DNA of 64,000 nucleotides from Mustelus asterias. Taxonomy: Eukaryota. A model generated the notes under the pieces. The model saw only the letters and a program-made list of their open reading frames with translations. It did no database searches and was not told the origin of the DNA. The stretch's first letter is position 1; the number at the start of each line of letters is the position of its first letter. Shown here in pieces: positions 1,482 through 61,267 of the stretch. The stretch spans positions 53,382,001-53,446,000 of the forward strand of contig NC_135806.1 of assembly GCF_964213995.1 (NCBI RefSeq). Direction: 5' to 3'. The translations under genes and the position numbers were made by a program.

Positions 1482-2437
1482 TCCCGGAAGTCCATATCTG
1501 TGCCAGATGTGTGGAACTGCATCTCCTGAAGGATCGTGTAAGGGAGCTGGAGCTGAGGCTCGATGAACTCAGTTTAGTTAGGGAAAATGAGAGAGTCATA
1601 GATAAAAGTTATAGTCAGGTAGTGACACCAGGGTCTCGGAAGGAAGACACGTGGGTCACGGTTAGGAGGGGTAATAGTCAGAAGGGTGATGTGCCAGAAA
1701 GCACCCCAGTGGCAGTCTCCCATAAGAGAAAGGGATGGGCAACAGATGGGAGAAGGGAAGGGAGTGAGCAGTCTGTGGAGGGATCCCCTGTGGTTGTCCC
1801 CCTCCACAATAGGTATATTGTTTTGGATTCTGTGGAGGGGGATGACCCTCCAGGGGTAAGCCACGAGGACCAGATCGCCTCCACGGAGACAGGCTCAGGG
1901 GTCCGGAAGGGAAAGAAGGGGTTTAGGAGAGCGATAGTTGTGGGGGACGCAATAGTTAGAGGCACGGACAGGCGCTTCTGTGGGACTGAACGAGAATCCA
2001 GGATGGTAGTCTGCCTCCCTGGTGCCGGGGTACTGGATGTCTCCGAGGGGGTAGGAAGCATATTTAAAAAGGAAGGTAGTCAAACGGATGTGATTGTACA
2101 CATTGGGGGAAATGATGTAGGTAGGAAGAGCAGGGGGGTCATACGAGAGAAATTCAGGGAGTTGGGTGCTAGGCTAAAAAGTAAGACCTCCAGTGTAGCA
2201 ATCTCTGGACTGCTCCCGGTGCCTAGTGCAAGTGAGGCTCGGAACAGGGAGATTCTACAGTTGAACGCGTGGCTAAAGGACTGGTGCAAGAGGGAGGGTT
2301 TTAAATTCATAGATAACTGGGAAATCTTCAAGTCAGGATGGCAACTGTACAGAAAGGATGGGTTACACCTTAACTGGAAGGGAGCAAATATCCTGGCTGG
2401 GAGTTTTGCTCGAGTGTTTCGGCAGGATTTAAACTAG
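1482..2437 (+). CDS. CR1 ORF1: CxxC/leucine zipper plus SGNH esterase-like domain
   Basis: ICARC..LELRLDEL coiled coil; SGNH blocks GDAIVRG, HIGGND and DGLH. The ORF-track N-terminus (1361-1481) is probably flanking DNA. Confidence 0.85.
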
Positions 2438-5355
2438 TGTGGCAGGGGGGTGGGGAACAAAACAGGAGGTCAGAAAATACTGAGGCTGGGGTCGAGCTGG
2501 GGGCCAGGGCAAGGCTAGCTAAGAAGAGGAGCACTCTGGAGGAGGAGGACCTGACTGGGCCTGGAGGTCTGGAGTGCATCTGCTTCAATGCGAGGAGTGT
2601 AACGGGTAAAACAGACGAACTTAGGGCCTTAATGCTTGTGCGGAATTTGGATGTGGTTGCGGTGACGGAAACTTGGTTAAAAGGACAGGACTGGCAGCTG
2701 AATATTCCGGGGTATCAGTGTTTTAGGCGAGACAGAGGAGGGGCTAAAAAAGGTGGGGGAGTAGCGATATTAGTTAAGGAGCATATTACCGCGGTGCAGA
2801 GGGTAGACAACTTAGAGGGGTCATGTACTGAGTCGCTGTGGGTGGAACTCAGAAACAGGAAGGGTGCAGTCACTATGCTGGGGGTGTACTACAGGCCACC
2901 CAACAGCCCACGGGAAGTGGAGGAAAGGATATGTCAGGAGATTCTGGATAGGTGCAGAAAAAATAGGGTTGTTGTAGTGGGGGACTTTAATTTCCCTGGC
3001 ACAGACTGGAAAGTGCTTAGAGCTGGGGGACCGGACGGGGAGGAATTTGTAAAATGCGTACTGGAAGGTTCTTTGGAACAGTATGTAGATAGCCCGACTA
3101 GAGAGGGGGCTATACTGGACCTAGTTCTGGGAAATGAGCCCGGTCAGGTCGTCAAAGTTTCGGTAGGGGAACATGTGGCAAATAGTGACCACAACTCTGT
3201 TAACTTTAGGATAGTAATGGACAAGGATGAGTGCTGTCCTACGGGCAGGGTGCTAAATTGGGGGAAGGCTGACTATAGCCGGATTAGGCAGGAATTGGTG
3301 GATGTTGATTGGGAGAGGATGTTCGAGGGTAAGTCCGCGTCTGGCATGTGGGAGTCTTTTAAGGAACTATTGATAAGGCTGCAGGATAGGCATGTGCCTG
3401 TAAAAAGGAAAGATAGGAAAGGTAGGATTCGAGAGCCGTGGATAACCAGGGAAATTGAGGATCTGATTAAAATGAAAAGGGAGGCGTACGTTAAGTCCAG
3501 GCAACTGAAAACAGATGGAGCTCTGGAGGAATACAGAGAGAGTAGGAAAGATCTCAAACGGGGAGTTAGAAGGGCAAAAAGAGGGCACGAGATGTTCTTG
3601 GCAGGCAGGATTAAGGAGAATCCTAAGGCATTCTATTCATACGTTAGGAACAAAAGAGTTGTCAGGGAGAAAATCGGACCTCTCAGGGACAAAGGAGGGG
3701 AATTATGCTTAGAACCCAAGGGAATAGGGGAGATCCTAAATGAATACTTTGCATCGGTATTCACGAAGGAGAGGGGCGTGTTAACCGGGAGTGTCTCGGA
3801 GGGAGGTGTTGACCCGTTAGAGAAAATCTCCATTACGAGAGAGGAAGTGTTAGGTTTTTTAGGGAACATTAAAACTGACAAAGCCCCAGGGCCTGATGGC
3901 ATCTATCCTCGACTGCTCAGGGAGACGAGAGAGGAAATTGCTGGGCCTCTGACGGAAATCTTTGTCGCTTCTTTGGACACGGGTGAGGTCCCTGAGGATT
4001 GGAGGATAGCGAATGTGGTCCCGTTGTTTAAGGAGGGTAGCAGGGATAACCCAGGAAATTATAGGCCGGTGAGCTTGACGTCCGTGGTAGGGAAGTTGTT
4101 GGAGAGGATTCTTAGAGACAGGATGTATGTGCATTTAGAACGGAACAATCTCATTAGTGACAGACAGCATGGTTTTGTAAGAGGGAGGTCGTGCCTTACA
4201 AATTTGGTGGAGTTGTTTGAGGAAGTGACAAAAACGGTTGATGAAGGAAGGGTCGTGGATGTCGTCTATATGGATTTCAGTAAGGCATTTGACAAAGTCC
4301 CACATGGCAGGTTGGTTAAGAAGGTTAAGGCTCATGGGATACAAGAAGTGGCTCGATGGGTGGAGAACTGGCTTGGCCATAGGAGACAGAGGGTAGTGGT
4401 CGAAGGGTCTTTTTCCGGCTGGAGGTCTGTGACCAGTGGTGTTCCGCAGGGCTCTGTACTGGGACCTCTGCTATTTGTGATATATATAAATGATTTGGAA
4501 GAAGGTGTAACTGGTGTAATCAGCAAGTTTGCGGATGACACAAAGATGGCTGGAATTGCGGATAGCGAAGAGCATTGTCGGGCAATACAGCAGGATATAG
4601 ATAGGCTGGAAAATTGGGCGAAGAGGTGGCAGATGGAATTTAATCCGGATAAATGCGAAGTGATGCATTTTGGAAGAAATAATGTAGGGAGGAGTTATGC
4701 AATAAATGGCAGAGTCATCAGGAGTATAGAAACACAGAGGGACCTAGGTGTGCAAGTCCACAAATCCTTGAAGGTGGCAACACAAGTGGAGAAGGTGGTG
4801 AAGAAGGCATATGGTATGCTTGCCTTTATAGGACGGGGTGTAGAGTATAAAAGCTGGAGTCTGATGATGCAGCTGTATAGAACGCCGGTTAGGCCGCATT
4901 TGGAGTACTGCGTCCAGTTCTGGTCGCCGCACTACCAGAAGGACGTGGAGGCATTGGAGAGAGTGCAGAGAAGGTTTACCAGGATGTTGCCTGGTATGGA
5001 GGGTCTTAGCTATGAGGAGAGATTGGGTAGACTGGGGTTGTTCTCCTTGGAAAGACGGAGAATGAGGGGAGATCTGATAGAGGTGTACAAGATTATGAAG
5101 GGTATAGATAGGGTGAACAGTGGGAAGCTTTTTCCCAGGTCGGAGGTGACGATCACGAGGGGTCACGGGCTCAAGCTGAGAGGGGCGAAGTATAACTCAG
5201 ACATCAGAGGGACGTTTTTTACACAGAGGGTGGTGGGGGCCTGGAATGCGCTGCCAAGTAAGGTGGTGGAGGCAGGCACGCTGACATCGTTTAAGACTTA
5301 CCTGGATAGTCACATGAGCAGCCTGGGAATGGAGGGATACAAACGATTGGTCTAG
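2437..5355 (+). CDS. CR1 ORF2: APE endonuclease plus reverse transcriptase (972 aa open)
   Basis: CFNARS, ETW, GDFN and SDH endonuclease motifs; NYRPVSL, DFSKAFD, GVPQGSVLGP and FADD RT motifs. Confidence 0.95.
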   Translation: MWQGGGEQNRRSENTEAGVELGARARLAKKRSTLEEEDLTGPGGLECICFNARSVTGKTDELRALMLVRNLDVVAVTETWLKGQDWQLNIPGYQCFRRDRGGAKKGGGVAILVKEHITAVQRVDNLEGSCTESLWVELRNRKGAVTMLGVYYRPPNSPREVEERICQEILDRCRKNRVVVVGDFNFPGTDWKVLRAGGPDGEEFVKCVLEGSLEQYVDSPTREGAILDLVLGNEPGQVVKVSVGEHVANSDHNSVNFRIVMDKDECCPTGRVLNWGKADYSRIRQELVDVDWERMFEGKSASGMWESFKELLIRLQDRHVPVKRKDRKGRIREPWITREIEDLIKMKREAYVKSRQLKTDGALEEYRESRKDLKRGVRRAKRGHEMFLAGRIKENPKAFYSYVRNKRVVREKIGPLRDKGGELCLEPKGIGEILNEYFASVFTKERGVLTGSVSEGGVDPLEKISITREEVLGFLGNIKTDKAPGPDGIYPRLLRETREEIAGPLTEIFVASLDTGEVPEDWRIANVVPLFKEGSRDNPGNYRPVSLTSVVGKLLERILRDRMYVHLERNNLISDRQHGFVRGRSCLTNLVELFEEVTKTVDEGRVVDVVYMDFSKAFDKVPHGRLVKKVKAHGIQEVARWVENWLGHRRQRVVVEGSFSGWRSVTSGVPQGSVLGPLLFVIYINDLEEGVTGVISKFADDTKMAGIADSEEHCRAIQQDIDRLENWAKRWQMEFNPDKCEVMHFGRNNVGRSYAINGRVIRSIETQRDLGVQVHKSLKVATQVEKVVKKAYGMLAFIGRGVEYKSWSLMMQLYRTPVRPHLEYCVQFWSPHYQKDVEALERVQRRFTRMLPGMEGLSYEERLGRLGLFSLERRRMRGDLIEVYKIMKGIDRVNSGKLFPRSEVTITRGHGLKLRGAKYNSDIRGTFFTQRVVGAWNALPSKVVEAGTLTSFKTYLDSHMSSLGMEGYKRLV

Positions 5356-5522
5356 TTGGACCAAGGAGCGGCACAGGCTTGGAGGGCCGAAGGGCCTGTT
5401 TCCTGTGCTGTGCTGTACTGTTCTTTGTTCTTTGAGTGTCCGAGGAGGAAAGTAGTATATACAAGGGAGTTGGGCAAGGGAATGGCGGGGGGGGGGGGGG
5501 GGGGGGGGGGGGGAGGGGGGGG

Positions 5523-6373
5523 AGTTTTCAATTACCAAGATAGGAATTTACCAGTGCAAAGTATTTCAACCTACACACAAGGTATTTTTTTCTAATCAGG
5601 AAGGTCCTATAGAACCAAATTGTAGCTTTTATACTGGTTTTAATAGGAAAGGGAGATTCACTTAAAATCGTTTCACTTAAAAGTTGACATTTTCAGGAGT
5701 ACAACTATATCTGAGTGAGGACTTACTGTTGACTGACAAATCAGTAAATGGGGATGGCAGTGGGGGGGGGGGGGGGGGGGGTGGTGACAACACAACTGGA
5801 GTAGGCGAGAGGTTGTAGTTAAGAGTGTGATCTCAGACAAGCACATCTTCAGACAGTGTCTGCATCTCAAAGAACTTCAGCTCAGAGTCATCGGGCCAGA
5901 GTCAAAGGTGCAATGTTTCATGATGAACAAGGGGGAAGAGCTACCTGGACAGCAATTCCAGGATGCAGTCATATGCAAATTAATGCTGCCAATCTGGTTA
6001 TTTGTCCATGACCAAGTCAGGAAGGTAAGGGAGCCCCAAGTTGCAGTGCTGGAGGAGGCTTTGTTTTTGCCTTGCGCTTGTCTGAGATCACAAGGCCAAC
6101 GACAACCTCTCGCCTACTACAGTTGTGTTGTCACTACCCCACCCACTATCTACTGATTTGTTAGTCAACAGTAAGTCCTCACTCAGTTGTAGTTATGCTC
6201 CTGAAAACGTCAGCTTTTAAGTGAAATGATTTTAAGTGAATCTCCCTTCCTATTAAAACCAGTATAAAAGCTGCAATTTGGTTCTGTAGGATCTTCTTGA
6301 TCAGAAAAAAATACCTTGTGTGAAGGTTGAAATACTTTGCAATGCTAAATTCCCATCTTAGTAATTGAAAACT
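5523..6373. repeat. Large imperfect inverted repeat: arms 5523-5842 and 6076-6373, spacer about 230 bp
   Basis: The arms are reverse complements, e.g. tgtgatctcagacaagc/gcttgtctgagatcaca and gaggacttactgttgact/agtcaacagtaagtcctc. Confidence 0.9.
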
Positions 6374-6446
6374 TCTTAAATTAAAATGTAAATAAAATGT
6401 TGTATGCTAGCTCATACTACTTGCCCTTTCACATGCTGAAAGGGGT

Positions 6447-6929: not shown

Positions 6930-9400
6930 CAAGACAGACTTACTTATTGGAGGAAGTCAATGTCTACAGGGTTGATGAAGCTGACAGTGACAGTGGTGCA
7001 GGAACCATTCAAGTTGAGGGAACAAAAAAGGATGTGATAATGCTACAGTATAGTATAATAAGGGAAATACAGTTCCCTGCAACAGGGACCAAGAGTCCTG
7101 AAGGTCGTGTTGCCCACCAAGAGTCAGGGTTAAAACATTTCCTCGCACCTAGAGAACAACCTGGCAGTAAGAGGGGGAGGATCCAACTGTCATAGTCCAT
7201 GTCAGAGACAAAAGCAGGTCGGCTTAACAATGAGGTTGAGATGAGGAATTTGAGGAGCAAGGCTCTAAATTAGTAAACAGCAACTGAAAAGGAAATAATC
7301 TCTGGAGTACTGACTGAGCAACATACAAAATGGCACAGGGTTAAACAAATCAGAAGGTGTGTGTTCAATGTTTGGTCCCAAAAGTGGGGTGGGAGACAGG
7401 GGTTTGAGTCTCTAGCACCAGGACTTGGGACAGGGGCTCCACTTAAACCAGGCTGGGCAGTGCCCTGGCAAATCAAAGAGTGTTTGATTTGATTTATTGT
7501 TACATGTATTAGCATACGCTGAAAAGTATTGTTTCGTGCGCACTATACAGACAAAGCATGCCATTCATCGAGAAGGAAATGAGAGAGTACAGAATGTGGA
7601 GTTACAATTAGATCTAGGGTGTAGAGAAAGATCAACTTAATGCAAAGGAAGTCCATTCAAAAGTCTGACAGCAGCAGGGAAGAAGCTGTTCTTGAGTCGG
7701 TTGGCACGTGACCTCAGATTTTTCTATATTTTTCCCGACAGAAGGTAGAAGAGAGAATGTCCGGGGTGCGTAGGGTCCTTAATTATGCTGGCTGCTTTGA
7801 CGAGGCAGCGGGAAGTGTAGACAGAATCAATGATGGGAGGCTGGTTTGTGTGATGGATTGGGCTACATTCACAACCTTTTGTAGTTTCTTGCGGTCTTGG
7901 GCAGAGCAGGAGCCATATCAAGCTGTGATCCAGCTAGAAAGAATGCTTTCTATGGTGCATCTGTGAAAGTTGGTGAGAGTCATAGTGGACATGCCAAATG
8001 TCCTTAGTCTTCTGAGAAAGTAGAGGAGTTGGTGAGCTTTCTTAAGTAGTGTCAGCATGGAGGAGGACCAGGACAGGTTGTTGGCAATCTGGACACCTAA
8101 AAACCTGAAGCTCTCGACCTTTCTACTTCGTCCCCACTGATGTAGACAGGGGCATGTTCTCCTCTACACTTCCTGAAGTCAATGACAATCTCCTTCATTT
8201 TGGTGACATTGAGGGAGAGATTATTGTTGCCACACCAGTTCACCAGATTCTCTCTCTCATTCCTGTACTCTGTCTTGTCATTGTTTGAGGATCGATCCGA
8301 CCCACTATGTTGGCATTGTCAGCAAACTTGAAAAGCGGGTTGGAGGGGAATTTGGCCACATAGTCATAGGTGTAAAAGGAGTATAGTAGGGGGCTGAGAA
8401 CACAACCTTGTGGGGCACCGGTGTCGAGGATGATCGTGGTGTTGTTGTTGCCTATCCTTACTGATTGTGGTCTGTGGGTTAGGAAGTTCAGGATCCAGTC
8501 GCAGAGGGAGGAGCCGAGGCCCAGGCCACGGAGTTTGGAGAGGAGTTTCGTGGGAATAATGATGTTGAAGGCTGAGCTATAGTCAATAAATAGGAGTCTG
8601 ACATAGGTGTCATTGTTATCTAGATGTTTCAGGGTTGAGTGCAGGGCCAGAGAGATGGTGTCTGCTGTGGACCTGTTGCGGCGGTAGGCGAACTGTGGTG
8701 GGTCCAGGCAGTCCGGGAGGCTGGAATTGATTCGTGCCATGACTAACCTTTCGAAACACTTCATAATGTGGGATGTGGAAAGAGCTTCAAGCTAAAAGAG
8801 GGAGCTGTGCAAGAATCAATCCAAGGCTACATAGAGATGAGAATGTGATAGGAAGGAAACTAGTTTCCAATGGTAATAACGTGTCTGTAACCAAGGTCAA
8901 ATCTGGGGGAACTGGTAAATGCATAAAAGCATTCATAACCAGGACAATAAATTCATGGAGATAGATAGGTGTGATGTGATCGCAGCCATACAACAGTGTA
9001 GTTCCATGGTGGTCATGGTTAGAAGCTAAATATTGCAGGATCGTTGATGTTTGAAAAGAGACAAAATGGAATATTAGCAGGGTTAGCCCTGATTACGAAA
9101 GGGAAAAGGATGGATTGTAACAGAGAAGACCTAGAAGCAGAGTCAGAATGGGTGGAGACAAGAATTAACAGGGACAAAACTAAGGAGTTTGTAACAAACA
9201 GCTTGTAACAATAATCTTGGGAGGGACTTTAATCTTCAGATAAAATAGCCTGAAGGATGATTCTATGAAATGCAATCGGGGGATATGGAGAAAGGATGTA
9301 AAGTGACTTTCAGGTAAAGAATCAGCCATGATCGTATTACATGGTGAAGGAAACTCGAGGGGTCAAAAGAACTACTTCTGCTCCTGCTTCTATTTTCTTA
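6930..9400 (+). mobile_element. Old, degraded CR1 remnant split by the Rex1/Babar insertion
   Basis: Esterase-like remnants near 7050-7300, APE-like remnants at 8900-9240, and a CR1-type tail near 9320-9395. Confidence 0.5.
7483..8768 (-). mobile_element. Rex1/Babar-clade LINE, 5'-truncated
   Basis: [46 protein letters not shown]; caataaatcaaatcaaa tail. Confidence 0.85.
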
Positions 9401-13494: not shown

Positions 13495-16400
13495 GGGATG
13501 CAAAGGTAGTAATCTCGGGATTGCTGCCTGTGCCGCGGGAGAGTGAGAACAGGAATCGGTGGAGAATGAATGCGTGGCTGAGGGACTGGAGCAAGGGACA
13601 AGGATTTGGGTACTTGGATCATTGGGACCTCTTTAGGGGCAGGTGTGACCTGTTTAAAAAAGACGGGTGGCACTTGAATCCCAGGGGGACCAATATCCTG
13701 GCGGGAAGGTTGGCTAAGGCTACTGGAGAGACTTTAAACTAGAAAGGTTGGGGGGAGGGAATCGAAATGAGGGGACTGAGAGCGAGGAGGTTAGCTCGCA
13801 AATAGATAAGGAATGTAGACAGGGTAAGAGGGAGGTTAGACGAGTGATGGAGAAGGGAAGTGCTCAGGCTGAAGGTCTGAGATGTGTCTATTTTAATGCC
13901 AGGAGTGTAGTGAATAAAGTGGATGAGCTTAGAGCGTGGATTGCTGCTTCGAATTGTGATGTGGTGGCCATTACGGAGACTTGGATGTCTCAGGGACAGG
14001 ACTGGGTGCTTCAGGTGCCGGGTTTTAGATGTTTCAGGAAGGACAGGGAGGGAGGCAAGAGAGGGGAGGGGAGTGGCACTGTTGATCAGGGATAGTGTCA
14101 CGGCTGTAGAGAAGGTGGACGCCGTGGAGGGATTGACTACGGAGTCTCTGTGGGTGGAGGTTAGGAACAGGAAGGGGTCGGTAACTTTGCTGGGTGTTTT
14201 CTATAGGCCGCCCAATAGTAACAGAGATGTTGAGGAGCAGATGGGGAAACAGATCCTGGAGAGATGTAGGAATAACAGAGTTGTCGTGATGGGAGATTTT
14301 AATTTCCCAAACATAGATTGGAATATCCCTAGGGCTAGGGGTTTGGATGGAGAGGAGTTTGTTAGGTGTGTCCAGGAGAGTTTCCTGACACAGTATGTGG
14401 ATAAGCCTACTAGAGGAGAGGCTGTACTTGATCTGGTGCTGGCTAATGAACCTGGACAGGTGGAGGATCTCTCGGTGGGTGAGCATCTTGGGGATAGCGA
14501 TCATAATTCTATCTCCTTCACGATAGCATTGGAAAGAGATAGGATCAGGCAGGCTAGGAAAGTGTTTCTCTGGAGTAAAGGGAAATACAGTGTCATCAGG
14601 GAGGAAATTAGACGGGTAAATTGGAAGGAGGCATTCTTGGGGAAAAGTACCGAAGGAAAGTGGAGGATTTTCAAGGAATGTTTGTCTGGAGCTCTGCATG
14701 ACAACGTTCCGATGAGACAGGGGGGTGTTGGTAGGGTACGGGAACCGTGGTGCGCGAAGGTTGTGATGAACCTGGTGAATAAGAAAAGAGAGGCGTACAG
14801 AAGGTTCAGAGAGCTAGGAGGTGTTAAGGATTTAGAGGAGTATACGGGATGTAGGAAGGAGCTTAAGAAGGAAATTAGGAGAGCGAGAAGGGGTCATGAG
14901 AAGACCTTGGCGGGTAAGATTAAGGAGAATCCCAAGGCTTTCTACAAATATGTCAAGAGTAAAAGGATGAGATGTGAAGGCATAGGACCCCTAAAAGGTG
15001 AAGGGGAAAAAGTTTGTGCGGAACCGTTAGAAATGGCGGAGGTGCTTAATGAATACTTTACCTCGGTATTCACAGTGGAAAGGGATCTGGGTGGTTGTAC
15101 TGCTGGTTTGCGGTGGACAGAAAGGATCGAGCATGTGGACATAAAGAAAGAGGATGTGTTGGAACTATTGAATGGCATCAAGGTTGGTAAGTCGCCGGGA
15201 CCGGATGGGATGTACCCCAGGTTACTGTGGGAGGCGAGGGAGGAGATTGCGGAGCCTTTGGCGATGATCTTTGCATCGTCGATGGAGACGGGAGAGGTTC
15301 CGGAGGATTGCAGATGTGGTCCCTATATTCAAGAAAGGGAACAGGGACAGCCCGGGAAATTACCGACCGGTGAGTCTAACCTCAGTGGTTGGTAAGTTGA
15401 TGGAGAGGATCCTGAGAGACAGGATTTATGATCATCTAGAGAAGTTTAGTATGATCAAAAGTAGTCAGCACGGCTTTGTCAAGGGCAGGTCGTGCCTTAC
15501 GAGCCTGGTTGAGTTCTTTGAAAATGTGACCAAACACATTGACGAAGGAAGAGCGGTGGATGTGGTCTATATGGACTTCAGCAAGGCGTTCGATAAGGTC
15601 CCCCATGCAAGACTTCTTGAGAAAGTGAGAGGGCATGGGATCCCAGGGGCTGTTGCCTTGTGGATCCAGAACTGGCTTGCCTGCAGAAAGCAGAGAGTGG
15701 CTGTGGAGGGGTCTTTCTCTGCATGGAGGTCAGTGACCAGTGGAGTGCCCCAGGGATCTGTTCTGGGACCCTTGCTGTTTGTCATTTTCATAAATGACCT
15801 GGATGAGGAAGTGGAGGGATGGGTTGGTAAGTTTGCTGACGACACCAAGGTAGGTGGTGTTGTGGATAGTTTGGAGGGATGTCAGAAGTTGCAGCGAGAC
15901 ATAGATAGAATGCAAGACTGGGCGGAGAAGTGGCAGATGGACTTCAACCCGGATAAGTGTGTAGTGATCCATTTTGGCAGATCCAATGGGATGAAGCAGC
16001 AATATAATATGAAGGGTACCATTCTTAGCAGTGTAGAGGATCAGAAGGACCTTGGGATCTGGGTCCATAGGACTCTTAAATCGGCCTCGCAGGTGGAGGA
16101 TGCGGTCAAGAAGGCGTACGGCGTACTGGCCTTCATTAATCGAGAGATTGAGTTTAGGAGTCGGGAGATAATGCTGCAGCTTTATAGGACCCTGGTTAGA
16201 CCCCACTTGGAGTACTGCGCGCAGTTCTGGTCACCTCATTACAGGAAAGATGTTGAAGCCATTGAAAGGGTGCAGAGGAGATTTACAAGGATGTTGCCTG
16301 GATTGGGGGGCATGCCTTATGAGGATAGGTTGAGGGAGCTTGGTCTCTTCTCCCTGGAGAGACGAAGGATGAGAGGTGACCTGATAGAGGTTTACAAGAT

Positions 16401-33368: not shown

Positions 33369-33597
33369 ATTATTAAAAAAAATTAATTCTAAATAGGAAG
33401 GGTGTGTCATGAGAAAAACTTTCTATACAAATGCAGAGCTCTTCAATTCAAGCTTTATCCAAGATCTCATGTCTCCACTTACTTTTAAATGACGACTCTC
33501 GTTTAGGAACAGACATTTGATACACCCTGACCGATCAGTGGGTAAATACATCACACAGCTAATTGAGTCCTTCAGGCCACCTTTCACTCTCCGTTCC

Positions 33598-36127
33598 AGC
33601 GCTGGTGATAGAGCGTTCATCAAGTCAGAGGTGCGACGTCTCCTGGGGGAGGGGATCATTGAGGCCAGTACCAGTCCCTGGAGAGCCCAAGTGGTGGGTG
33701 TCAAGACTGGGGAGAAACTTTGCATGGCCATGGACTACAGTCAGACCATCAACCGATACACGCAACTGGACGCGTATCCCCTTCCCCGCATATCTGACAT
33801 GGTCAATCAGATTGCGCAATATCGGGTGTTCTCCACCATTGATTTGAAGTCTGCATACCACCAGCTCCATATCGGCCCGGAAGACTGCCAATACACTGCC
33901 TTCGAGGCGGATGGCCGTCTCTACCACTTCCTTCGGGTCCCCTTCGGCGTCACCAGCGGGGTCTCGGTTTTCCAGCGTGAGATGGACCGAATGGTGGACC
34001 AGAACGGGCTGCGGGCCACCTTCCCGTACCTGGATAATGTCACCATCTGCGGCCACGATCAGCAGAACCACGACGCCAACCTCCAAAAGTTCCTCCACAC
34101 TGCGGCACTCCTTAACCTGACCTACAATAAGGAGTAGTGTGTATTCCGTACGCGCCGCCTCGTCATCCTTGGTTGTGTTGTGGAGAACAGGGTCATCAGC
34201 CCTGACCCCGACTGCATGCGTCCCCTCCTGGAACTTCCCCTCCCCACCACCCTCAAAGTGCTGAGGAGATGCCTCGGCTTCTTCTCATACTACGCCCAGT
34301 GGGTCCCCAATTATGCGGACAAAGCCCGTCCGCTCATCAAATCCACATCTTTTCCCCTAGCGGTGGAGGCCCGGCTGGCCTTTGACCGCATCAAAGCGGA
34401 TATCGCGAAGGCCACGATGCACGCCGTAGACGAATCCACCCCATTCCAGGTGGAGAGCGATGCGTCTGACTTTGCCCTAGCCGCCACTCTTAACCAGGCG
34501 GGCAGATCCGTGGCCGCTTTCCCGCACACCCTCCAGTGCCCTGAAATTCGACACTCCTCTGTCGAAAAAGAGGCACAAGCCATCGTGGAGGCGGTGCGGC
34601 ACTGGCGCCACTACTTAGCTGGCAAATGGTTCACCCTGCTCACGGACCAACGGTCCGTTGCCTTTATGTTCAGCAACGCGCAGCAGGACAAAATCAAGAA
34701 CGACAAAATTTTGAGGTGGAGGATCGAGCTCTCCACCTACAATTACGACATTTTATACCGGCCTGGGAAGCTCAATGAGCCCCCAGACGCCCTGTCCTGG
34801 GGGACCTGTGCCAGCGCGAACCTAGACCGGTTACAGACTCTCCACGATGATCTCTGCCACCCGGGGGTGACCAGGTTCTTTCATTTCATCAAGGCCCGGA
34901 ACCTGCCCTATTCCGAGGAAGTCAGGTCTGTAACCAGGCACTGCCAAGTCTGCGCGGAGTGCAAGCTGCACTTCTACCGACCAGACAGAGCGCACCTCAT
35001 CAAAGCCACCCGCCCTTTCGAACGCCTGAGCGTAGACTTCAAAGGCCCCCTCCCCTCCTCTAACTGCAATGTCTACTTCCTCAAATGTTGTTGATGAGTA
35101 TTCGCAGTTCCCCTTTGCTATCCCCTGCCTGGATATGACCTCGGCCACGGTCATCAGGGCCCTGCACAGCCTCTTCACCCTGTTTGGTTTCCCCAGCTAT
35201 ATTCATAGCGACCAGGGGTCCTCTTTTATGAGTGACGAGCTGCGCCAGTACCTACTCTCCCAAAGGCATAGCCTCGAGAAGGACCACCAGCTCCAACCCC
35301 AGGGGGACGGACAGGTGGAGAGGGAGAATGCGACAGTCTGGAAGGCTGTTTTATTTGCTCTCCGGTTTAAGGGTGTTCCAGTCTCCCGCTGGCAAGAAGT
35401 CCTCCCTGATGCGCTACACTCAATTAGGTCACTACTGTGCACGGCTACCAACGCCACCCCGCATGAACGAATGTTTGTTTTCCCCAGGAAGTCCTCCTCG
35501 GGGACCTCACTACCATCATGGCTGACGTCCCCTGGCCCTGTCCTGCTCCGGAAGTACGTGCAGACCCATAAATCGGACCCCCTGGTCGAAACGGTCCGGC
35601 TCCTCCATGCCAATCCCCAATACGCCTATGTGGCACGCTCATTTAGCCCCAGTGTACGGCACGCCTGAGCCCCAGGAGCAGCCTCCACACACCCGGCAGT
35701 CTGAAGGCGCTATGGACGACACCACCGGTTATGGATTGGCGCCTGACTCATCACCGCGGCCTCCTGAACCGGCGCCACGGCTGACACTGCGGCGGTCGCA
35801 GCGGCAGATCAAGCCCCCGGAGAGACTGAACTTGTAACTTGAATCAGTAACTTGTGACTGTTGTTTCCACCACCTCGCCACCACTGAACTCTTTTTAAAC
35901 AGGGGGTGAATGTGGTGAACCACTGTAACAGTGTGTGTGGGATGTGACTGGGCACGCCCCTGCTGCCTTGGTCCGGGGCTCCGCCCTCCTCGGGGTATAA
36001 AGGTGGCTGCTCTCCGCCCCATTGCCTCAGTTCGAGTTGGCCATCGGTTTGGGAGTGCTTCTGTCCTTGTTAATAAAAGCCTGTTGTTCCGCAACCTCTC
36101 GTCTTTGCGTGCATCAATTTTGCATCA
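33598..36127 (+). mobile_element. 5'-truncated Gypsy element (RT-RH-IN, PPT, 3' LTR 35911-36127), disrupted
   Basis: pol is homologous to 58202-61267 (YLDN, SDASD, SVDFKG) with a stop at 34135 and frameshifts. PPT aaacagggggtgaa; LTR TGTGG...GCATCA; flanked by 48-bp direct repeats. Confidence 0.9.
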
Positions 36128-45099: not shown

Positions 45100-47495
45100 A
45101 CAGGGCGGGTGATGTGTGGCAGCTGCAGATGCGGGAGCTTGTACACATCAGTGTTACTCCACACGATGTCTGCAATAAGTTTCCTCCAGCTGTAGGCACT
45201 CAGCTCAGAGTCACTGAGCTGGAGGCTGAGCTGCAGACACTGCAACACATTCAGTGGGAAAAAGTTACCTCTGGGTACTTGGTTCCAGGAGACGGTTACA
45301 CCCCTTTGGATAGGGTCGTCTGATTAGGCCCATGGCCAGGATCAGGAGAATACGGCTGCAAGCGAGGCAGATATGGGAATCAAGGAGGCAGAAATTGAGG
45401 AGCCTCAACCCATGTAATGGTCCAACACATTCAAGCAACCTGCAAGGATGAAACTGGCGGCTGCAGGGTGGATAAGCAAACTCATCATGGCACTGGAAGC
45501 CATTCAAGTAGGGGTAGTTAATGGGAATGTCGTGTAGCAGGGGACAGTACAGTCAGGAAGATAGGACACTGTTCTCTGCAGCCAAGAACAATAGACCAGA
45601 AGGCCGTGTTTCCTGCCAGGTACTCAGGTTCAAGACATCTGCTCAGGGCCGAAGAGAAACTTGCAGGAGGATCCAGATGTCGTGGTCCATGAAGGTACCA
45701 ATGATCTAGGCAGAACTATGAAAGAAGTTCTGCTGAGAGAATATGAGCAGGTAGGGGTCAAACTAAAAAGCAGAACCTTAAGGAGGGAATAATTTCTTAT
45801 TAGTCGAGCCACAATCAAATGGGAGTAGGGTAAATTAAATTAGGTGTTAAATGCGTGGCTCAATGATTCGTGTGGGAGAAACGGGTTTCAATTCATGGGG
45901 CACTGGCACCAGTAATGGGGAAATTGTGAGTTGTCTTCACCCGAACAGTATTCTGGTGAGTCATATAGCTGGGGCAATAGGGCTTTTAAACTAAATAGCA
46001 TGGGTGACAAATCTAGTGAGGGAAGATGAGAGAAATTAAAGAGAGGATAAGGCAAGAAGCAAGGAAAGGTGATCCAACCATGGCCAACAAGAATTATTTT
46101 AGATCAAAGGAAGAGGCTTAAGGTTGCTTTAAAAAGTAGCAAGCGGTAGGATTGGAAGCATTTTAGAACTCAGCAAAAAGGGGATCAAGAAACTGAAAGA
46201 GAAAAAATGGAACATGAAATGAGCCTGGCAAGAAGCAAAAGACTAAAATTTTCTATAAGTAAAAAGGAAAAGATTAGTAAGACAAATGTGGGCTCAATAC
46301 AGGCAGATACAGGAGAATTTATCTTGGGGAACAAGGAAAGAGAGAAAGAAAACAAATCCTTTTGTTGCTGTCTTCACAGAGGAAGATAAAAGTTTAAAGT
46401 TCATTTATTAGTCACAAGTAAGGCTTGCATTAACACTGCAATGAAGGTACTGTGAAAATCCTCTAGTCGCCACACTTCTGCGCCTGTTCGGGTCAATGCA
46501 CCTAATCAGAACAACAGGATACAAAACACCCCTTAAGGCCACTAGAGAACCAAGGGACTAGTGAGAATGAGGAACTGAAATAAATTAGTATTAGTAATAA
46601 AGGTAGTACTGAAATTTGATAAATGTCCCAGAAGTGATGATCTACATCCCAGAGTGTAGAGAGATAGCAGTGTGCTGGTGGTCATCTTCTCGAACTCGAT
46701 AGATGCTGGAAGTTCCTGCAGATTGGAAGGAAGCAAATGTAACCCCACTATTTAAGAAGTTTAAGTTAAGTTTATTTATTTGTGCCACAATTAGGCTCAC
46801 ATTAGCACCAATGAAGTTACTGTGAAAATCGCCTAGTCGCCACACTCCGGCATCTGTTCAGGTACATTGAAGGAGAATTTAGCATGGCCAATGCACGTAA
46901 CCAGCACGTCTTCCGGATTGTGGAACGAAACCGGAGCACCCGGAGGAAACACACGCAGACATGGGGAAAATGTGCAGACTTCTCACAGACAGTGACCCAA
47001 TCTGGGAATTGAACCTGGCTCCCTGACACCAAGAGGTAGCAATGCTAACCACTAGAATGGAGGGAGAGAGAAGAAACAGGGGACTACAGACCTATCAGCC
47101 TGACATCAGTACTAGAGAAAATGCTAGAATCTGTTATATATCAGGAATGTGATAAGAGGACACTTGGAAAATATTAGTAGGATTGGGCAGAGCCAATATG
47201 GATTTCTGAACGGGAAATAATGTTCAACAAATCTGTAGTGTTCGGAGAATGTAACTAGCAGAGTGGACAATGGAAATCAGCAGATGTGGTGTTTTTGGAT
47301 TTTCAGAAAACTATAAGATCCCATACAGGAGAACAAAATTATAGCACATGGGATTGGAGGTAATACACTAGCATGGAGGATTAGCAAGTGGACAGAAAAC
47401 AGTAGGAATACAGAGGTAGAAATTGGGCCATGAGAGTGTTGAATGGTAGGCCAGGATTATGGGGCCAGATGGCCTACTCCTGTTCTACTTCCTAT
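45100..47495 (+). mobile_element. Old degraded CR1 with two minus-strand V-SINE insertions (about 46390-46505 and 46760-47053)
   Basis: ORF1 CxxC/zipper remnant (QLRVTELEAELQTL), esterase remnants, tttaaactaa junction at 45985, RT remnants and tail. Confidence 0.65.
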
Positions 47496-50500: not shown

Positions 50501-51726
50501 GGTAATAAGGGCATGAAAACAGAAGGGAGCTTTCAAAAGCAAATCTCAACCATTTGCACTCTTAGAATTCAACACTATCGTCTGGTGCCATTTCAGAATC
50601 CAGGCAACAGTCTTCTGATCACATAGAATAGTTTTAGAAAAGGAGGGTAAAAGGCTAAAATTCTTGTTTATTGGAGTGCCCTTCTCGATCTATAAATTGG
50701 TTTAAACGGAAAACTATGTCCTCACCAGATTTATGAGCCATGATGAATTAGCTCATAGAAGAATGATGTGTTGCTTTAATGTAACTCAGGCACAGATTTG
50801 TTTGCAGTGTTGAAGGTTTCATAAAGTTGGTGGTTTGGAATGAAGAACGAAACAGGCTCACAATGGCTGGTGAAATCTTAATGAGAAGCATTGCTTAGAT
50901 TCCCCAGAAGTGAACTTCTGAGGTTCAAGTCACAGTGCTGGTAATATCACAGCCTGTAATAAACAACTGTGTTCCTGGTTACCCACTGTGTGTTACAAGC
51001 TTTGGTGGCTACAGTAAGCTGAATTAGTACATTATCAAAAGTCACAATGTCCCATGCAACCTTTACTCTTCAACTTGAACATTAGTTTGGTAATGTTCAG
51101 GATGTTATAATTGCAGACAAAATGTATTATTTCAACACAATGAGCAAACTACCTGATACAGATTCTGTCAATTCTAGTCCTCTTTTGCTCCAAGAAAAAC
51201 ATATGGAGTTCAATGATTTTCTTCACAGGTTTTTATATTTTAAACTAGTGTCTTTTAATTGGATCTTTGAGTTAATAAACTATATATCTAAAACATTTTC
51301 AAATTGGAAGAAACAAGGCTGGAAACATTAAGAAATATTCTTTAATTTCAAAATTTCCCAGCAGATGCCATTTTAATAGGATATATTTTTAGAATCTGTT
51401 TCCGTTCAAGTGACTCCTGTGGCATTATAGTATTTTGCAATGACTTTTTTTTTTAATGAACTTGAGTGTTCAAATCCATGAAGAGGCTTTCAGTGGTTTG
51501 ATATTAAATCCCCAAAGTATTTAATGGCATAAAGCATGGCTTCGTACTGAGATCTGCGGATGGTATCCAAATCCCCAAAGGAGAGAATGTTAAAACTGTG
51601 TCATGCCACAGGGGATCACTGGCATCAAGCCTTCCCCAACCAGATAGCAATGGTCTCTTTACTACTGTGTAATTTAATCTATTGACAAGCAATTCAAATG
51701 AATTCATTCAATCAGCAACTGGTCTT

Positions 51727-57118: not shown

Positions 57119-57200
57119 TATAAGACCCTCTGCTCCAGCAGGACCCCTTCAGTCTGAACTGGTGTATTCGTGTTAGTAGTTCCATTGTTACACAATAAAA
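57119..57200 (+). promoter_or_regulatory. LTR TATA box, initiator and poly(A) signal
   Basis: TATAAGA at 57119, TCAGTCT initiator at 57149-57155 (about 30 nt downstream), AATAAA at 57194-57199. Confidence 0.6.
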
Positions 57201-57295
57201 GCCTTCAATATCGAAGCCTTGGTTCCACGTGCTTGATTGTCGCGCATCAATTTTATTGTGTAACAGAAAACTCTCAGCTGTACAAAAAAAAGAGT

Positions 57296-58162
57296 ATGGA
57301 ACAGATCTTAAAACCAGATCGTCTGGCGCTGGACCCATGTGCGGTCGGTGCCGCTAACACCTTCGACCACTGGTGGAAGTGTTTCGAAGACTACCTGGCT
57401 GCCTCTGTAGCTATCACTACAGACAGTGACAAACTCCAAGTCCTCCATGCAAGGGTAAGCGACACGATTTATCTCACGATTCGTGCGGCTCCCACTTACC
57501 CGAGGGCCGTCGAGCTCCTGAAGAAACGATACACGAAACCACCCAACGAGATACACGCTCGTTACCTCCTCGCGACACGACGTCGGCAGTCGGGCGAAAC
57601 CATGGAGGACTACGCCAATGAGCTCCTGCAGCTTGCCAGGGGTTGCGATTGTAAAGACGTATCAGCCGAACAATATATGTACGACCTCGCCCGAGACGCG
57701 TTCGTAGCAGGGGTAGGGTCCTCGTACATCAGGCTTAAATTGCTGGAAAGGGGGAACCTCGACTTGACCCAAGCGATGGAGATGGCTGAGATGCTGGAAG
57801 CGGCGTCGAAAAGCTTGGCGCTGTACCCCGAGGACCACGTGCAGTCAACGTGGCAGGAGCAAGCTCAGCTCCCTCCTCGCCCCGCTAACCCGCGCTCCCA
57901 GATCGATCCAACGACGGCGGCAGCTCCAGGTGGCCAGCGATGCTATTTTTGTGGTGGGGCCAAGCATCCACGGCAACAGTGTCCGGCAAGAACGGCTATC
58001 TGCAGCCAGTGCGGTAAAAAAGGCCACTACGGTAAAGTCTGCAGGTCGAAGTCTAAAAACGGCAGTGCAGCTTGTAACCCTCCAGAACGGAGACAATCTC
58101 CTTCGGCGTCGCAGTACCCACGAGGTCCGACCACGTGCGAACCCAGGACGGCGCCATCGTGA
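57296..58162 (+). CDS. gag: Gag with two CCHC zinc knuckles
   Basis: ATG at 57296 (MEQILKPD, shared with the 37096 element); CYFCGGAKHPRQQC and CSQCGKKGHYGKVC. Confidence 0.92.
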   Translation: MEQILKPDRLALDPCAVGAANTFDHWWKCFEDYLAASVAITTDSDKLQVLHARVSDTIYLTIRAAPTYPRAVELLKKRYTKPPNEIHARYLLATRRRQSGETMEDYANELLQLARGCDCKDVSAEQYMYDLARDAFVAGVGSSYIRLKLLERGNLDLTQAMEMAEMLEAASKSLALYPEDHVQSTWQEQAQLPPRPANPRSQIDPTTAAAPGGQRCYFCGGAKHPRQQCPARTAICSQCGKKGHYGKVCRSKSKNGSAACNPPERRQSPSASQYPRGPTTCEPRTAPS

Positions 58163-61100
58163 CTGACGGAGGAGGAGGAAGACCACCAGGAGTCGCTGCG
58201 TTTGGCGCCCTCGCCCACGTGCGATTCATGGGGGCGGCCATCATGGTCCACGACGACTAGGAGCGACCAGCAGGGGTCCTCAGCATCAACATCGGCAGCA
58301 TGCAGTGACGCCCAGGGGCCAACGGTGGCGTCGATCTCCCTGGACCAGACTAAGCACCACAGGCTTGAGAATTCCATGATGGATATAAAGGTAAATGGTC
58401 GAACTGTGAATTGTCTGTTTGACAGTGGGAGCACCGAAAGTTTCATACACCCTGAAACTGCTAAACGGTGTGGACTCCGGGTTCTCCCTGCCAAGCAGAC
58501 AATTTCCATGGCATCACGGTCCCGGTCTGTACCGATCCAAGGACGATGTATGGTAACTCTTGAGGTACAGGGCACAATTTACGAGCAATACAGGCTCCTT
58601 GTGTTACCTCACCTTTGTGCGCCAATTCTCCTCGGACTAAATTTTATGGTCCACATGAAGAGTGTGATCCTACAGTACGGTGGGCCACTCCCTTCACTGG
58701 CAGTAGGGAATCAGCCGCAGCCTCCAAATTGCCCAAAGCGCCCCGCATGCAATCTTTCCACTCTGAAAATCACTACACCATCCCTCTTTAAGAATCTGGT
58801 ACCAGGCTGCAAGCCCATCGCTACTAAAAGTAGGCGTTACAGCGCTGAGGACCGGATCTTTATTAGATCTGAGGTTCAGCGGCTCCTCAAGGAAGGGATC
58901 ATACAGGCCAGTGCTAGTCCGTGGAGAGCGCAGGTCGTGGTAGTCAAAAGCGGGAACAAACCTCGGATGGTCATCGACTATAGTCAGACCATTAATCGTT
59001 ATACGCAGCTGGATGCGTATCCTCTCCCGCGCATTTCTGATATGGTCAATCAGATTGCGCAGTACCGAGTGTTCTCTACCATAGACCTTAAGTCCGCCTA
59101 CCATCAACTCCCCATCCGCCCAGAGGACCGACAATATACGGCTTTTGAGGCGGATGGTCGTCTATACCAATTCCTCAGGGTTCCATTTGGTGTCACCAAT
59201 GGGGTCTCGGTCTTCCAGCGTGCTATGGACCGAATGGTGGACCAGAACGGGTTGCGGGCTACCTTCCCGTACCTGGATAACGTCACCATCTGCGGCCATG
59301 ACCAGCAGGACCACGACACGAATCTCCAACACTTTCTGCGCACTGCATCTCGCCTGAACCTGACCTATAACAGGGAGAAGTGCGTATTCCGTACGCGCAG
59401 GTTAGCCATCCTCGGATACGTGGTGGAAAACGGGGTCATTGGCCCTGATCCAGACCGTATGCGCCCCCTTACTGAACTTCCCTTGCCCGCTAGCACGAAA
59501 GCACTGAGGAGATGCCTCGGATTCTTTTCGTACTATGCGCAGTGGGTCCCCAACTACGCGGACAAAGCTCGTCCGCTCATCAAGTCCACGACCTTCCCAC
59601 TTACGCCGGAGGCCCAATTGGTCTTCAAGGCTTTGAAAAGCGACATCTCGAAAGCCACGATGCACGCGGTGGATGAATCCATCCCTTTCCAGGTGGAGAG
59701 TGATGCATCTGATTTCGCCCTAGCCGCCACACTAAACCAGGCAGGCAGGCCCGTCGCGTTCTTTTCCCGCACCCTTCAAGGCCCAGAAATTCGGCACTCA
59801 GCGGTGGAGAAGGAGGCTCAGGCCATTGTGGAGGCAGTCAGACACTGGCGCCATTACCTGGCAGGGAAGCGGTTCACCCTGATCACGGATCAACGATCCG
59901 TGGCGTTTATGTTCAACACGCAGAGGGGCAAGATCAAGAACGATAAGATCTTGCGGTGGAGAATTGAGCTCTCCACCTATAATTACGATATTATGTATCG
60001 TCCAGGGAAGCTCAATGAGCCCTCGGATGCCCTCTCGCGCGGAACATGCGCCATCATGCAGGAGGACCGCTTGAAGGCCCTCCACAATGATCTGTGTCAT
60101 CCTGGAGTCACCAGACTCTACCATTTCGTCAAAGCCCGCAACCTGCCTTACTCGGTGGAGGATGTCAGGTCAGTGACGAGAAGCTGTCGGATTTGCGCAG
60201 AATGCAAACCACACTTTTATCGACCAGACCGGGCACAATTGGTCAAGGCCACTCGCCCTTTTGAGAGGCTGAGTGTGGATTTTAAGGGCCCCCTTCCCTC
60301 AACGGACCGGAACGTCTATTTCCTCAACATAATAGACGAGTACTCCCGGTTCCCGTTTGTTGTCCCCTGTGCGGACACGTCGACTGCCACCGTCATCAAG
60401 GCATTCAGTGAGCTTTTTACCCTGTTCGGGTACCCCTGCTACATTCATAGCGACAGGGGCTCGTCGTTCATGAGCAACGACTTGAGGCAATTCCTGCTCT
60501 CATTCGGGATTGCCTCTAGTAGAACCACGAGCTACAACCCTAGGGGTAACGGACAGGTGGAAAGGGAGAATGCTACAGTCTGGAAGGCTGTCCTACTGGC
60601 ACTGAAATCCAGGGGCCTTCCAGTCTCCCGTTGGCAGGAGGTCCTTCCAAATGCGCTCCATTCTATCCGCTCCCTCCTGTGTACGGCAACCAATGCTACT
60701 CCCCACGAGAGGATGTTCTCATTCCCTCGGAAGTCGTCCTCGGGGATCTCATTGCCAGCCTGGTTGACGTACCCAGGACCCGTCCTTCTGCGGCGCCATG
60801 TGAGGGCTCGCAGGTCCGACCCCTTGGTCGAACCGGTCCAACTCCTCCACGCCAACCCTCAGTATGCCTATGTGGCATATCCTGACGGGCGAGAGGACAC
60901 TGTCTCCATTAGAGACCTGGCGCCCGCAGGGGACGTAGCAACTCCTGTCGCTCCTATTCCCCCAGTCACGAATCCACTACTCCTCATTGCTTCCCCAGAC
61001 GTGGCGCGGTCAGCACCGGGACCAGTGCATAACAGTTCTACTCCCATGTACAGCTTGCCTGAGACTCGGAGATCGGCGCCACCACCGAAGGTTCCAGGAT

Positions 61101-61267
61101 CCCCTGCACCATCGCCTCACCAGGGCCAACCGGCCCGGGAGTCCTTGAGGGGACAGCCGGACGTTGTTTTGGAGAGAACGCCACCGCAAGCACCTGCTCC
61201 GGTTTCGCAACCGGTGTTGAGGAGATCACAGCGTCGGTGCGGTCCTCCAGACCGTCTGGACTTGTGA
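58163..61267 (+). CDS. pol: Pol (protease, RT, RNase H, integrase), in frame with gag
   Basis: LFDSGS; YPLP..DLKSAYHQ..PFG..YLDN; SDASD/EKE/TDQ; HHCC zinc finger and D,D,E core (SVDFKG, SDRG, ERE). Confidence 0.93.
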   Translation: MTEEEEDHQESLRLAPSPTCDSWGRPSWSTTTRSDQQGSSASTSAACSDAQGPTVASISLDQTKHHRLENSMMDIKVNGRTVNCLFDSGSTESFIHPETAKRCGLRVLPAKQTISMASRSRSVPIQGRCMVTLEVQGTIYEQYRLLVLPHLCAPILLGLNFMVHMKSVILQYGGPLPSLAVGNQPQPPNCPKRPACNLSTLKITTPSLFKNLVPGCKPIATKSRRYSAEDRIFIRSEVQRLLKEGIIQASASPWRAQVVVVKSGNKPRMVIDYSQTINRYTQLDAYPLPRISDMVNQIAQYRVFSTIDLKSAYHQLPIRPEDRQYTAFEADGRLYQFLRVPFGVTNGVSVFQRAMDRMVDQNGLRATFPYLDNVTICGHDQQDHDTNLQHFLRTASRLNLTYNREKCVFRTRRLAILGYVVENGVIGPDPDRMRPLTELPLPASTKALRRCLGFFSYYAQWVPNYADKARPLIKSTTFPLTPEAQLVFKALKSDISKATMHAVDESIPFQVESDASDFALAATLNQAGRPVAFFSRTLQGPEIRHSAVEKEAQAIVEAVRHWRHYLAGKRFTLITDQRSVAFMFNTQRGKIKNDKILRWRIELSTYNYDIMYRPGKLNEPSDALSRGTCAIMQEDRLKALHNDLCHPGVTRLYHFVKARNLPYSVEDVRSVTRSCRICAECKPHFYRPDRAQLVKATRPFERLSVDFKGPLPSTDRNVYFLNIIDEYSRFPFVVPCADTSTATVIKAFSELFTLFGYPCYIHSDRGSSFMSNDLRQFLLSFGIASSRTTSYNPRGNGQVERENATVWKAVLLALKSRGLPVSRWQEVLPNALHSIRSLLCTATNATPHERMFSFPRKSSSGISLPAWLTYPGPVLLRRHVRARRSDPLVEPVQLLHANPQYAYVAYPDGREDTVSIRDLAPAGDVATPVAPIPPVTNPLLLIASPDVARSAPGPVHNSSTPMYSLPETRRSAPPPKVPGSPAPSPHQGQPARESLRGQPDVVLERTPPQAPAPVSQPVLRRSQRRCGPPDRLDL

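Follow-up and report, generated by a model that had tools for sequence, protein, structure and literature searches.

How does a CR1 retrotransposon translate the second of its two open reading frames (ORFs) when, as in the copy described here, the first in-frame ATG of that frame lies inside the endonuclease domain? The question is raised by a stretch of 64,000 nucleotides (nt) from the 3.68 Gb genome of Mustelus asterias (NCBI RefSeq assembly GCF_964213995.1, contig NC_135806.1, positions 53,382,001 to 53,446,000, forward strand; hereafter the window), in which the flagged bases are those where ORF1 meets ORF2 in a young long interspersed nuclear element (LINE) of the CR1 type, here called family A. 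CR1 is a dominant repeat in sharks, reptiles and birds; to our knowledge, LINE ORF2 translation has been settled experimentally for few elements only, reinitiation being the default assumption. An initial annotation of the window proposed that CR1 may make an ORF1-ORF2 fusion by −1 ribosomal frameshifting at a T_TTA_AAC heptamer, stimulated by a G-rich structure. Judged by its conservation across lineages, the junction is a real, deeply conserved recoding-type signal, and −1 frameshifting at U_UUA_AAC probably yields the predicted fusion in a minority of ribosomes. Both sequence tests of the proposal, concerning synonymous sites and phase, were passed, whereas the structural stimulator that formed its other half was not found.

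The ORF1/ORF2 junction of a young CR1 copy

As the annotation had read it, ORF1 of the flagged copy ends GAT TTA AAC TAG, with ORF2 in the −1 frame. The junction and its surroundings are organized as follows, in window coordinates:

1478–2437, + strand: family A ORF1, 5′-truncated, with an SGNH/GDSL esterase domain (Pfam Lipase_GDSL_2, E 3e-11)
2371–2373, + strand: final −1-frame stop upstream of the heptamer, 18 codons upstream
2428–2434, + strand: slippery heptamer T_TTA_AAC, in ORF1 phase
2435–2437, + strand: ORF1 stop, TAG, immediately 3′ of the heptamer
2445–2455, + strand: G box, GGGGG NN GGG, beginning 10 nt past the heptamer, a candidate stimulator
2428–2586, + strand: open, Met-free −1-frame linker of 53 codons from heptamer to endonuclease Asn (open and Met-free in 30/30 family A copies with the motif)
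2587–5355, + strand: family A ORF2, encoding an endonuclease of the APE type together with a reverse transcriptase (Pfam RVT_1, and Exo_endo_phos from codon 53)

Measured from stop to stop, the ORF1 frame spans 1340–2437 and the ORF2 frame 2374–5355 (993 codons), the latter being −1 relative to the former. The flagged copy has no ORF1 start, its match to full copies beginning near 1478, and is thus 5′-truncated. In full copies the Met is codon 36 of a 377-codon ORF1 frame, and ORF1 of one of them (L004) carries two CxxC pairs and a Leu-rich helix, the N-terminal Cys-pair zinc finger/leucine zipper arrangement. A profile search of PDB with the family A endonuclease returned the L1 endonuclease and ExoIII, the Asn at 2587 aligning with L1 N14, whereas a PDB search with the single sequence gave no match. 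Counted from the heptamer this first-strand Asn is codon 54, and the sole in-frame ATG before 2800, at 2632, is codon 69, within the endonuclease domain. Database ORF2 proteins begin at downstream Mets and are uninformative on the junction.

Vertebrate CR1 elements carrying a zinc finger/leucine zipper and an esterase ORF1 have been classed as type IVB, CR1 subgroup 7 (PMC4120745). The present element resembles them in its esterase ORF1 and in an ORF2 made of APE endonuclease and reverse transcriptase; it differs in that the available text of PMC4120745 gives no translation mechanism, the word ‘frameshift’ occurring 0 times in the accessible parts of PMC4120745, PMC3905857 and PMC8665684. A full-text literature search found no proposal of frameshifting in CR1, within a coverage that excludes the founding CR1 papers, so that an earlier mention is possible.

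Conservation of heptamer, phase and linker

Twenty lineage representatives were compared, comprising 11 families of this genome and nine host-derived metagenome contigs, with ORF1 identities of 21–78%; they share ancestry, and the lineage counts that follow are not independent. Six to eight of the contigs are presumably bird/reptile-type, judging by chicken CR1 and by a tegu protein that ends alike. In an endonuclease tree, which contained no named reference, the family A element groups with this bird/reptile type and apart from the TGA-type elements described below. The terminal Leu codon of ORF1 is TTA in 20/20 lineages, compared to 32/307 Leu codons elsewhere; at each of ten further conserved Leu positions, four to six codons are in use. 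Of the 56 conserved columns scanned in ORF1, the terminal Leu is the most codon-skewed outlier. The terminal Asn codon is AAC in 20/20 lineages (43/107 elsewhere). The base preceding TTA is T in 19/20, in a residue that varies over seven amino acids (T, D, G, A, S, H, C), and every one of the 20 lineages has TAG or TAA as the stop after the heptamer, none having TGA. The sole exception to the heptamer, L083, reads G_TTA_AAC with its endonuclease in the −1 frame, and a site with this first triplet (G_UUA_AAC) is listed for equine arteritis virus in the part of PMC5009743 available. The check suggested by the annotation, a search for synonymous variation in the L-N codons, accordingly revealed no such change at the lineage level.

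Individual copies of this genome tell the same story. ORF1 ends were sampled by nine protein searches, 20 random 10-kb stretches and 20 picked stretches, and located with a profile ending before the terminal L-N, 12 duplicate loci being removed before counting; as the majority of queries ended L-N, the sampling is biased to those residues, not to their codons. The 289 loci yielded 274 ORF1 ends, of which 238 have the in-phase heptamer and stop, 23 have the heptamer in a broken copy, and 13 lack it, owing to single-base changes in 11 cases and larger losses in two, none common to a family. In all 12 multi-copy families sampled the in-phase heptamer is the majority form. An outgroup query without L-N gave 20 ends (13 in-phase, four broken, three absent), and of the three junctions that the random stretches contributed, two keep the heptamer while the third has lost one T.

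The window itself contains further junctions, and the assertions that a second CR1 family repeats the pattern and that an old copy retains tttaaactaa at 45985 were both borne out:

13733–13759, + strand: family B junction, with heptamer 13733–13739, TAG and G box 13750–13759
13847–13849, + strand: family B in-frame linker ATG, codon 39, upstream of the endonuclease Asn at 13895
45985–45994, + strand: old copy C, heptamer and TAA retained, G box decayed, ORF1 ~70% like family L156 (below the profile cut-off, and so outside the count above)

In family B the −1 frame is open up to the same endonuclease motif. The absence of an early ORF2 start, also pointed out in the annotation, holds for family A, with its first ATG past the Asn, but not for family B, where the ATG at 13847 lies 16 codons 5′ of it. 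The heptamer by itself is not rare in the window (12 on the + strand against 6.7 expected); followed by TA it occurs four times against 0.33 expected, three of these being CR1 ORF1 ends and the fourth, at 51239, unrelated AT-rich DNA. Another old CR1 ORF1 remnant (6990–7407, ~66% like family L156) has an end too decayed to score.

The linker between the heptamer and the endonuclease Asn ranges from 105 to 372 nt and is a multiple of three in 17/17 lineages with both in view. Over the 916 linker codons of these lineages, stops in frames −1, 0 and +1 number 1, 56 and 85, respectively, and the 56 stops of frame 0 led us to reject readthrough of the ORF1 stop as the CR1 mechanism. Since representatives had been picked for the longest −1 frame, the linker test was rerun on all copies. 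The modal linker length is in frame in 11/11 families with a mode, and 178/191 in-frame copies are open, so that the −1 phase proved constant at both levels. Immediately upstream, the −1 frame is shut 1–5 codons 5′ of the heptamer in 15/20 lineages; the overlap is therefore not explained by an upstream start, and entry into ORF2 is placed at or after the heptamer. In 7/11 families no Met precedes the endonuclease Asn.

At the protein level the signature extends further. Close ORF1 homologs, the named ones being ray, skate, sawshark and tegu lizard proteins, end LN in 30/36 cases. Among 150 distant representatives from a 50%-identity library, which are related to each other, 112 have a usable C-terminus, ending LN in 49 and GN in 11. 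The terminal tripeptide is compatible with a canonical heptamer in 64 of these 112, compared to 75/1,344 nearby tripeptides. Where LN is the ending, the preceding residue rules out a T-ending codon in 1/49 (56/343 nearby); where it is GN, Gln precedes in 9/11, matching the requirement of G_GGA_AAC. These QGN ends suggest that G_GGA_AAC replaces T_TTA_AAC in distant ORF1s, a swap that we infer from protein alone because the viral and prokaryote genome contigs searched held no DNA for QGN-type relatives. Both U_UUA_AAC and G_GGA_AAC rank among the most shift-prone heptamers (PMC5009743, as far as available). Eight distant ORF1s (P0103, P0106, P0123, P0141, P0149, P0155, P0164, P0035) have longer tails with a shared K-N where others end L-N, which would fit A_AAA_AAC with a stop further down; three more (P0085, P0088, P0127) end FFR. 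Two proteins filed under bacterial species names, P0011 and P0206, are CR1 ORF1 and ORF2 proteins, probably reflecting host DNA in the assemblies.

The G box and the search for a stimulator

The G run said to follow shortly downstream in both young copies is indeed present, at 2445–2455 and 13750–13759. Numbering from the first heptamer base, GGGGG occupies positions 18–22 in 16/19 lineages, compared to 107 of 31,846 positions elsewhere, and positions 25–27 are mostly GGG. This G box (positions 18–27) occurs in 16/19 lineages and 11/12 families, with a fixed spacer of 10 nt from the heptamer. Position 18, a wobble position in codons for five amino acids, is G in 19/19 lineages, and both Gly codons of the box are GGG in 14/16. 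The G box is a candidate stimulator of the frameshift.

The analysis yielded no clear sign of a G-rich structure. Over the 19 lineages no stable downstream fold was found (mean folding z +0.38), nor any consensus fold; window z values were 0.41, 0.76, −1.40 and 0.67. Rfam gave no match at the junction and one chance-level match elsewhere. No stable or shared nested fold stood at the spacing of 5–9 nt given for viral stem-loop or pseudoknot stimulators (PMC7618472, in part); pseudoknots were not modelled directly, and the 3′ sequence offers few pyrimidines for pairing. A two- or three-tier G-quadruplex features in the best fold of 7/19 lineages, its first GG tract being only about half conserved. 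What is conserved about the G run is its sequence and its place; no stable or shared fold was found. A consensus fold upstream of the junction in the shark-only set outscored 99/100 column shuffles, whereas the bird-type and full sets did not.

Synonymous conservation is also found in a second ORF1 patch:

2012–2032, + strand: codons for C-L-P-G-A(-x-V), ~415 nt before the heptamer

Shark and bird/reptile-type lineages have this patch in common, with Leu as CTC in 15/21, Ala as GCC in 13/21 and Cys as TGC in 20/21. It recurs among the top duplex sites for the G box, with one compensatory change (L083). Tested against synonymous shuffles, the pairing has a mean z of −1.0, a value equalled in other segments, and three lineages break it. 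The signal is weak and mixed, and neither a long-range interaction between patch and G box nor a local hairpin in the patch is claimed. As a separate observation, long pure G runs (5487–5522 and 5762–5780) lie just past the 3′ end of the family A copy, in a region resembling a decayed inverted repeat (~5540–5820 versus 6090–6380).

The junction can be compared with several known systems. Coronavirus U_UUA_AAC and equine arteritis virus G_UUA_AAC sites share its heptamer and phase, with a partner ORF followed by a polymerase ORF (PMC5009743); they differ in that CR1 has no detected pseudoknot or stem 5–9 nt downstream and that its 0-frame stop adjoins the heptamer. [quoted passage not shown] The CR1 G box is likewise a conserved unstructured motif at a 10-nt spacer, although it is G-rich where that of PRRSV is C-rich, and nothing in CR1 points to a −2 product, since stops fill its other frames. 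The layout of the G box is closest to that of PRRSV, a parallel to be taken as a lead, not as a test. Among LINEs with an APE-type endonuclease, TRE5-A and TRE3-A of Dictyostelium require a −1 frameshift for ORF2 according to the legend of a review (PMC5911963); they belong to another lineage, with no esterase ORF1 described there. The available text of PMC5009743 covers only HeT-A, TART and L1 among non-LTR (long terminal repeat) elements.

Routes to ORF2 and the wider family

According to the proposed mechanism, the tRNA-Leu and tRNA-Asn would slip in tandem from UUA-AAC to UUU-AAA, giving a predicted ORF1-linker-endonuclease-reverse transcriptase product of ~1,315 residues (342 + 973). Most ribosomes would terminate at the stop and release the ORF1 protein (ORF1p), rare slippage would leave ORF1p in excess over the polymerase, and the fusion would tether the polymerase to an ORF1p oligomer in Gag-Pol fashion. 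The least certain step is the pause. A factor that occupies the unstructured G box at the entry channel for the mRNA may cause it, candidates being ORF1p and a G-tract-binding protein of the host. The stop codon that adjoins the heptamer may assist the pause, and a weak G-quadruplex or long-range pairing would be alternative sources of it.

Several observations weigh against frameshifting, beginning with the shared ancestry of the lineages, the missing downstream fold and the protein-only basis of the QGN swap noted above. Five out-of-frame linker lengths each recur in at least three copies; on visual inspection, 16/19 of these copies have a 1-nt change within the G run or next to it. A linker Met is present in 4/11 families, at codons 26, 39, 49 and 75, and 48/112 distant ORF1 ends are incompatible with a terminal heptamer. 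An in-frame AUG coincides with the stop in one family of 12 in this genome (a UAAUG overlap), and another lies 2 nt past the stop in 4/8 bird/reptile-type loci, these counts falling short of a shared start codon on or behind the stop of ORF1. By itself the lack of an AUG is weak evidence, because initiation of L1 ORF2 has been described as AUG-independent (PMC5009743, in part).

These AUG codons are what recommends the main rival, a termination-reinitiation of the kind known from L1 and SART1 (PMC2881922, in the text available), in which ribosomes would restart near the UAR stop in the −1 frame, at AUG or non-AUG codons, ORF2p would be a separate protein, and junction and G box would form a reinitiation signal. 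The precedent is close, since these too are bicistronic LINE RNAs whose ORF2 depends on ORF1 translation, the UAAUG overlap of one family here recalls SART1, and a restart at the stop would likewise keep the linker open. CR1 differs in that its ORFs overlap on a slippery heptamer and that a start codon is missing from the junction in most families; indeed there is no common one, and several families have out-of-frame ATGs near the stop. The heptamer is retained even in lineages that possess an AUG, and reinitiation leaves unexplained the synonymous conservation of T-TTA-AAC, the G_TTA_AAC variant and the QGN ends. We consider it unlikely as the general route; in lineages with an AUG, both routes may coexist.

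Dual coding and joining at the RNA level fit poorly. The former would hold that ORF1p needs a C-terminal Leu-Asn and that ORF2p starts upstream, the codons being fixed by a double protein constraint. Terminal LN is invariant in a 26-row ORF1 alignment and family A has a −1-frame CTG 18 codons upstream, but closure of the −1 frame just upstream of the heptamer in most lineages largely refutes dual coding, which would moreover permit AAT and TGA, neither of them used by any lineage. Distant relatives also switch LN to GN together with the preceding residue, and of all the readings this is the one to which we give least credence. Splicing, editing, polymerase slippage adding a base, or another role of the motif in RNA or DNA (e.g., as a protein-binding or cleavage site) is very improbable as well. 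In its favour, a ray database protein (P0004) reads through the junction in frame, and the G run gains and loses bases among copies. In-frame fusions also arise, however, as single decayed genomic copies (L184), which accounts for the reading of P0004, and a base added to a LINE RNA would be inherited by new copies, whereas the families retain the −1 layout. Three-base runs are too short for known polymerase slippage. Contigs from four sequencing runs, taken to be RNA only by guess, bridge the junction gap-free in three cases with no joint; they were not used as evidence, because contigs drop rare variants.

A different arrangement appears in seven metagenome loci that also encode an esterase ORF1 and fall on other endonuclease branches, where ORF2 lies in frame 0 behind a single TGA; the loci, with their positions, are:

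L086, 2406
L087, 2608
L098, 1794
L099, 1134
L100, 531
L102, 1322
L123, 398

The TGA is followed by C in 5/7, the open linker measures 72–123 codons, stops in frames −1, 0 and +1 sum to 43, 1 and 20, and no Met precedes the endonuclease motif in 3/7 (two representing one family). From the available text of PMC4120745 we infer that these are L2 elements. Their sequence looks like a case of candidate stop-codon readthrough, leading to the same kind of fusion. The window itself contains a Ty3/gypsy-type element (57158–61267) whose gag-like and pol-like frames share one phase and are separated by one TGA (58160–58162), which, followed by CTG, stands in a known readthrough context; a second, degraded Ty3/gypsy-type pol (33493–35668) is related to the pol at 58163.

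A broader reading would have all esterase-ORF1 LINEs make a Gag-Pol-like fusion: vertebrate CR1 through a −1 shift on U_UUA_AAC that a protein on the G box, perhaps ORF1p, stimulates; more remote relatives through different heptamers, G_GGA_AAC for instance; and a sister lineage through UGA-C readthrough. We regard this generalization as speculative and rather doubtful in its full extent. If true, it would amount to group-wide recoding, with protein-stimulated frameshifting outside RNA viruses that predates the split between sharks and bony vertebrates.

For CR1 itself, heptamer, stop and G box form a 30-nt cassette testable in a single reporter experiment, and the G box, being free of structure, may represent a new type of stimulator. 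If −1 frameshifting holds, CR1 ORF2p would be fused to the oligomerisation and esterase domains of ORF1 instead of existing as a free protein, and CR1 would come within reach of host anti-frameshift factors. The view of CR1 particle assembly would then be revised, ORF2 would no longer be annotated from its first ATG, and the design of assays for active CR1 would be affected.

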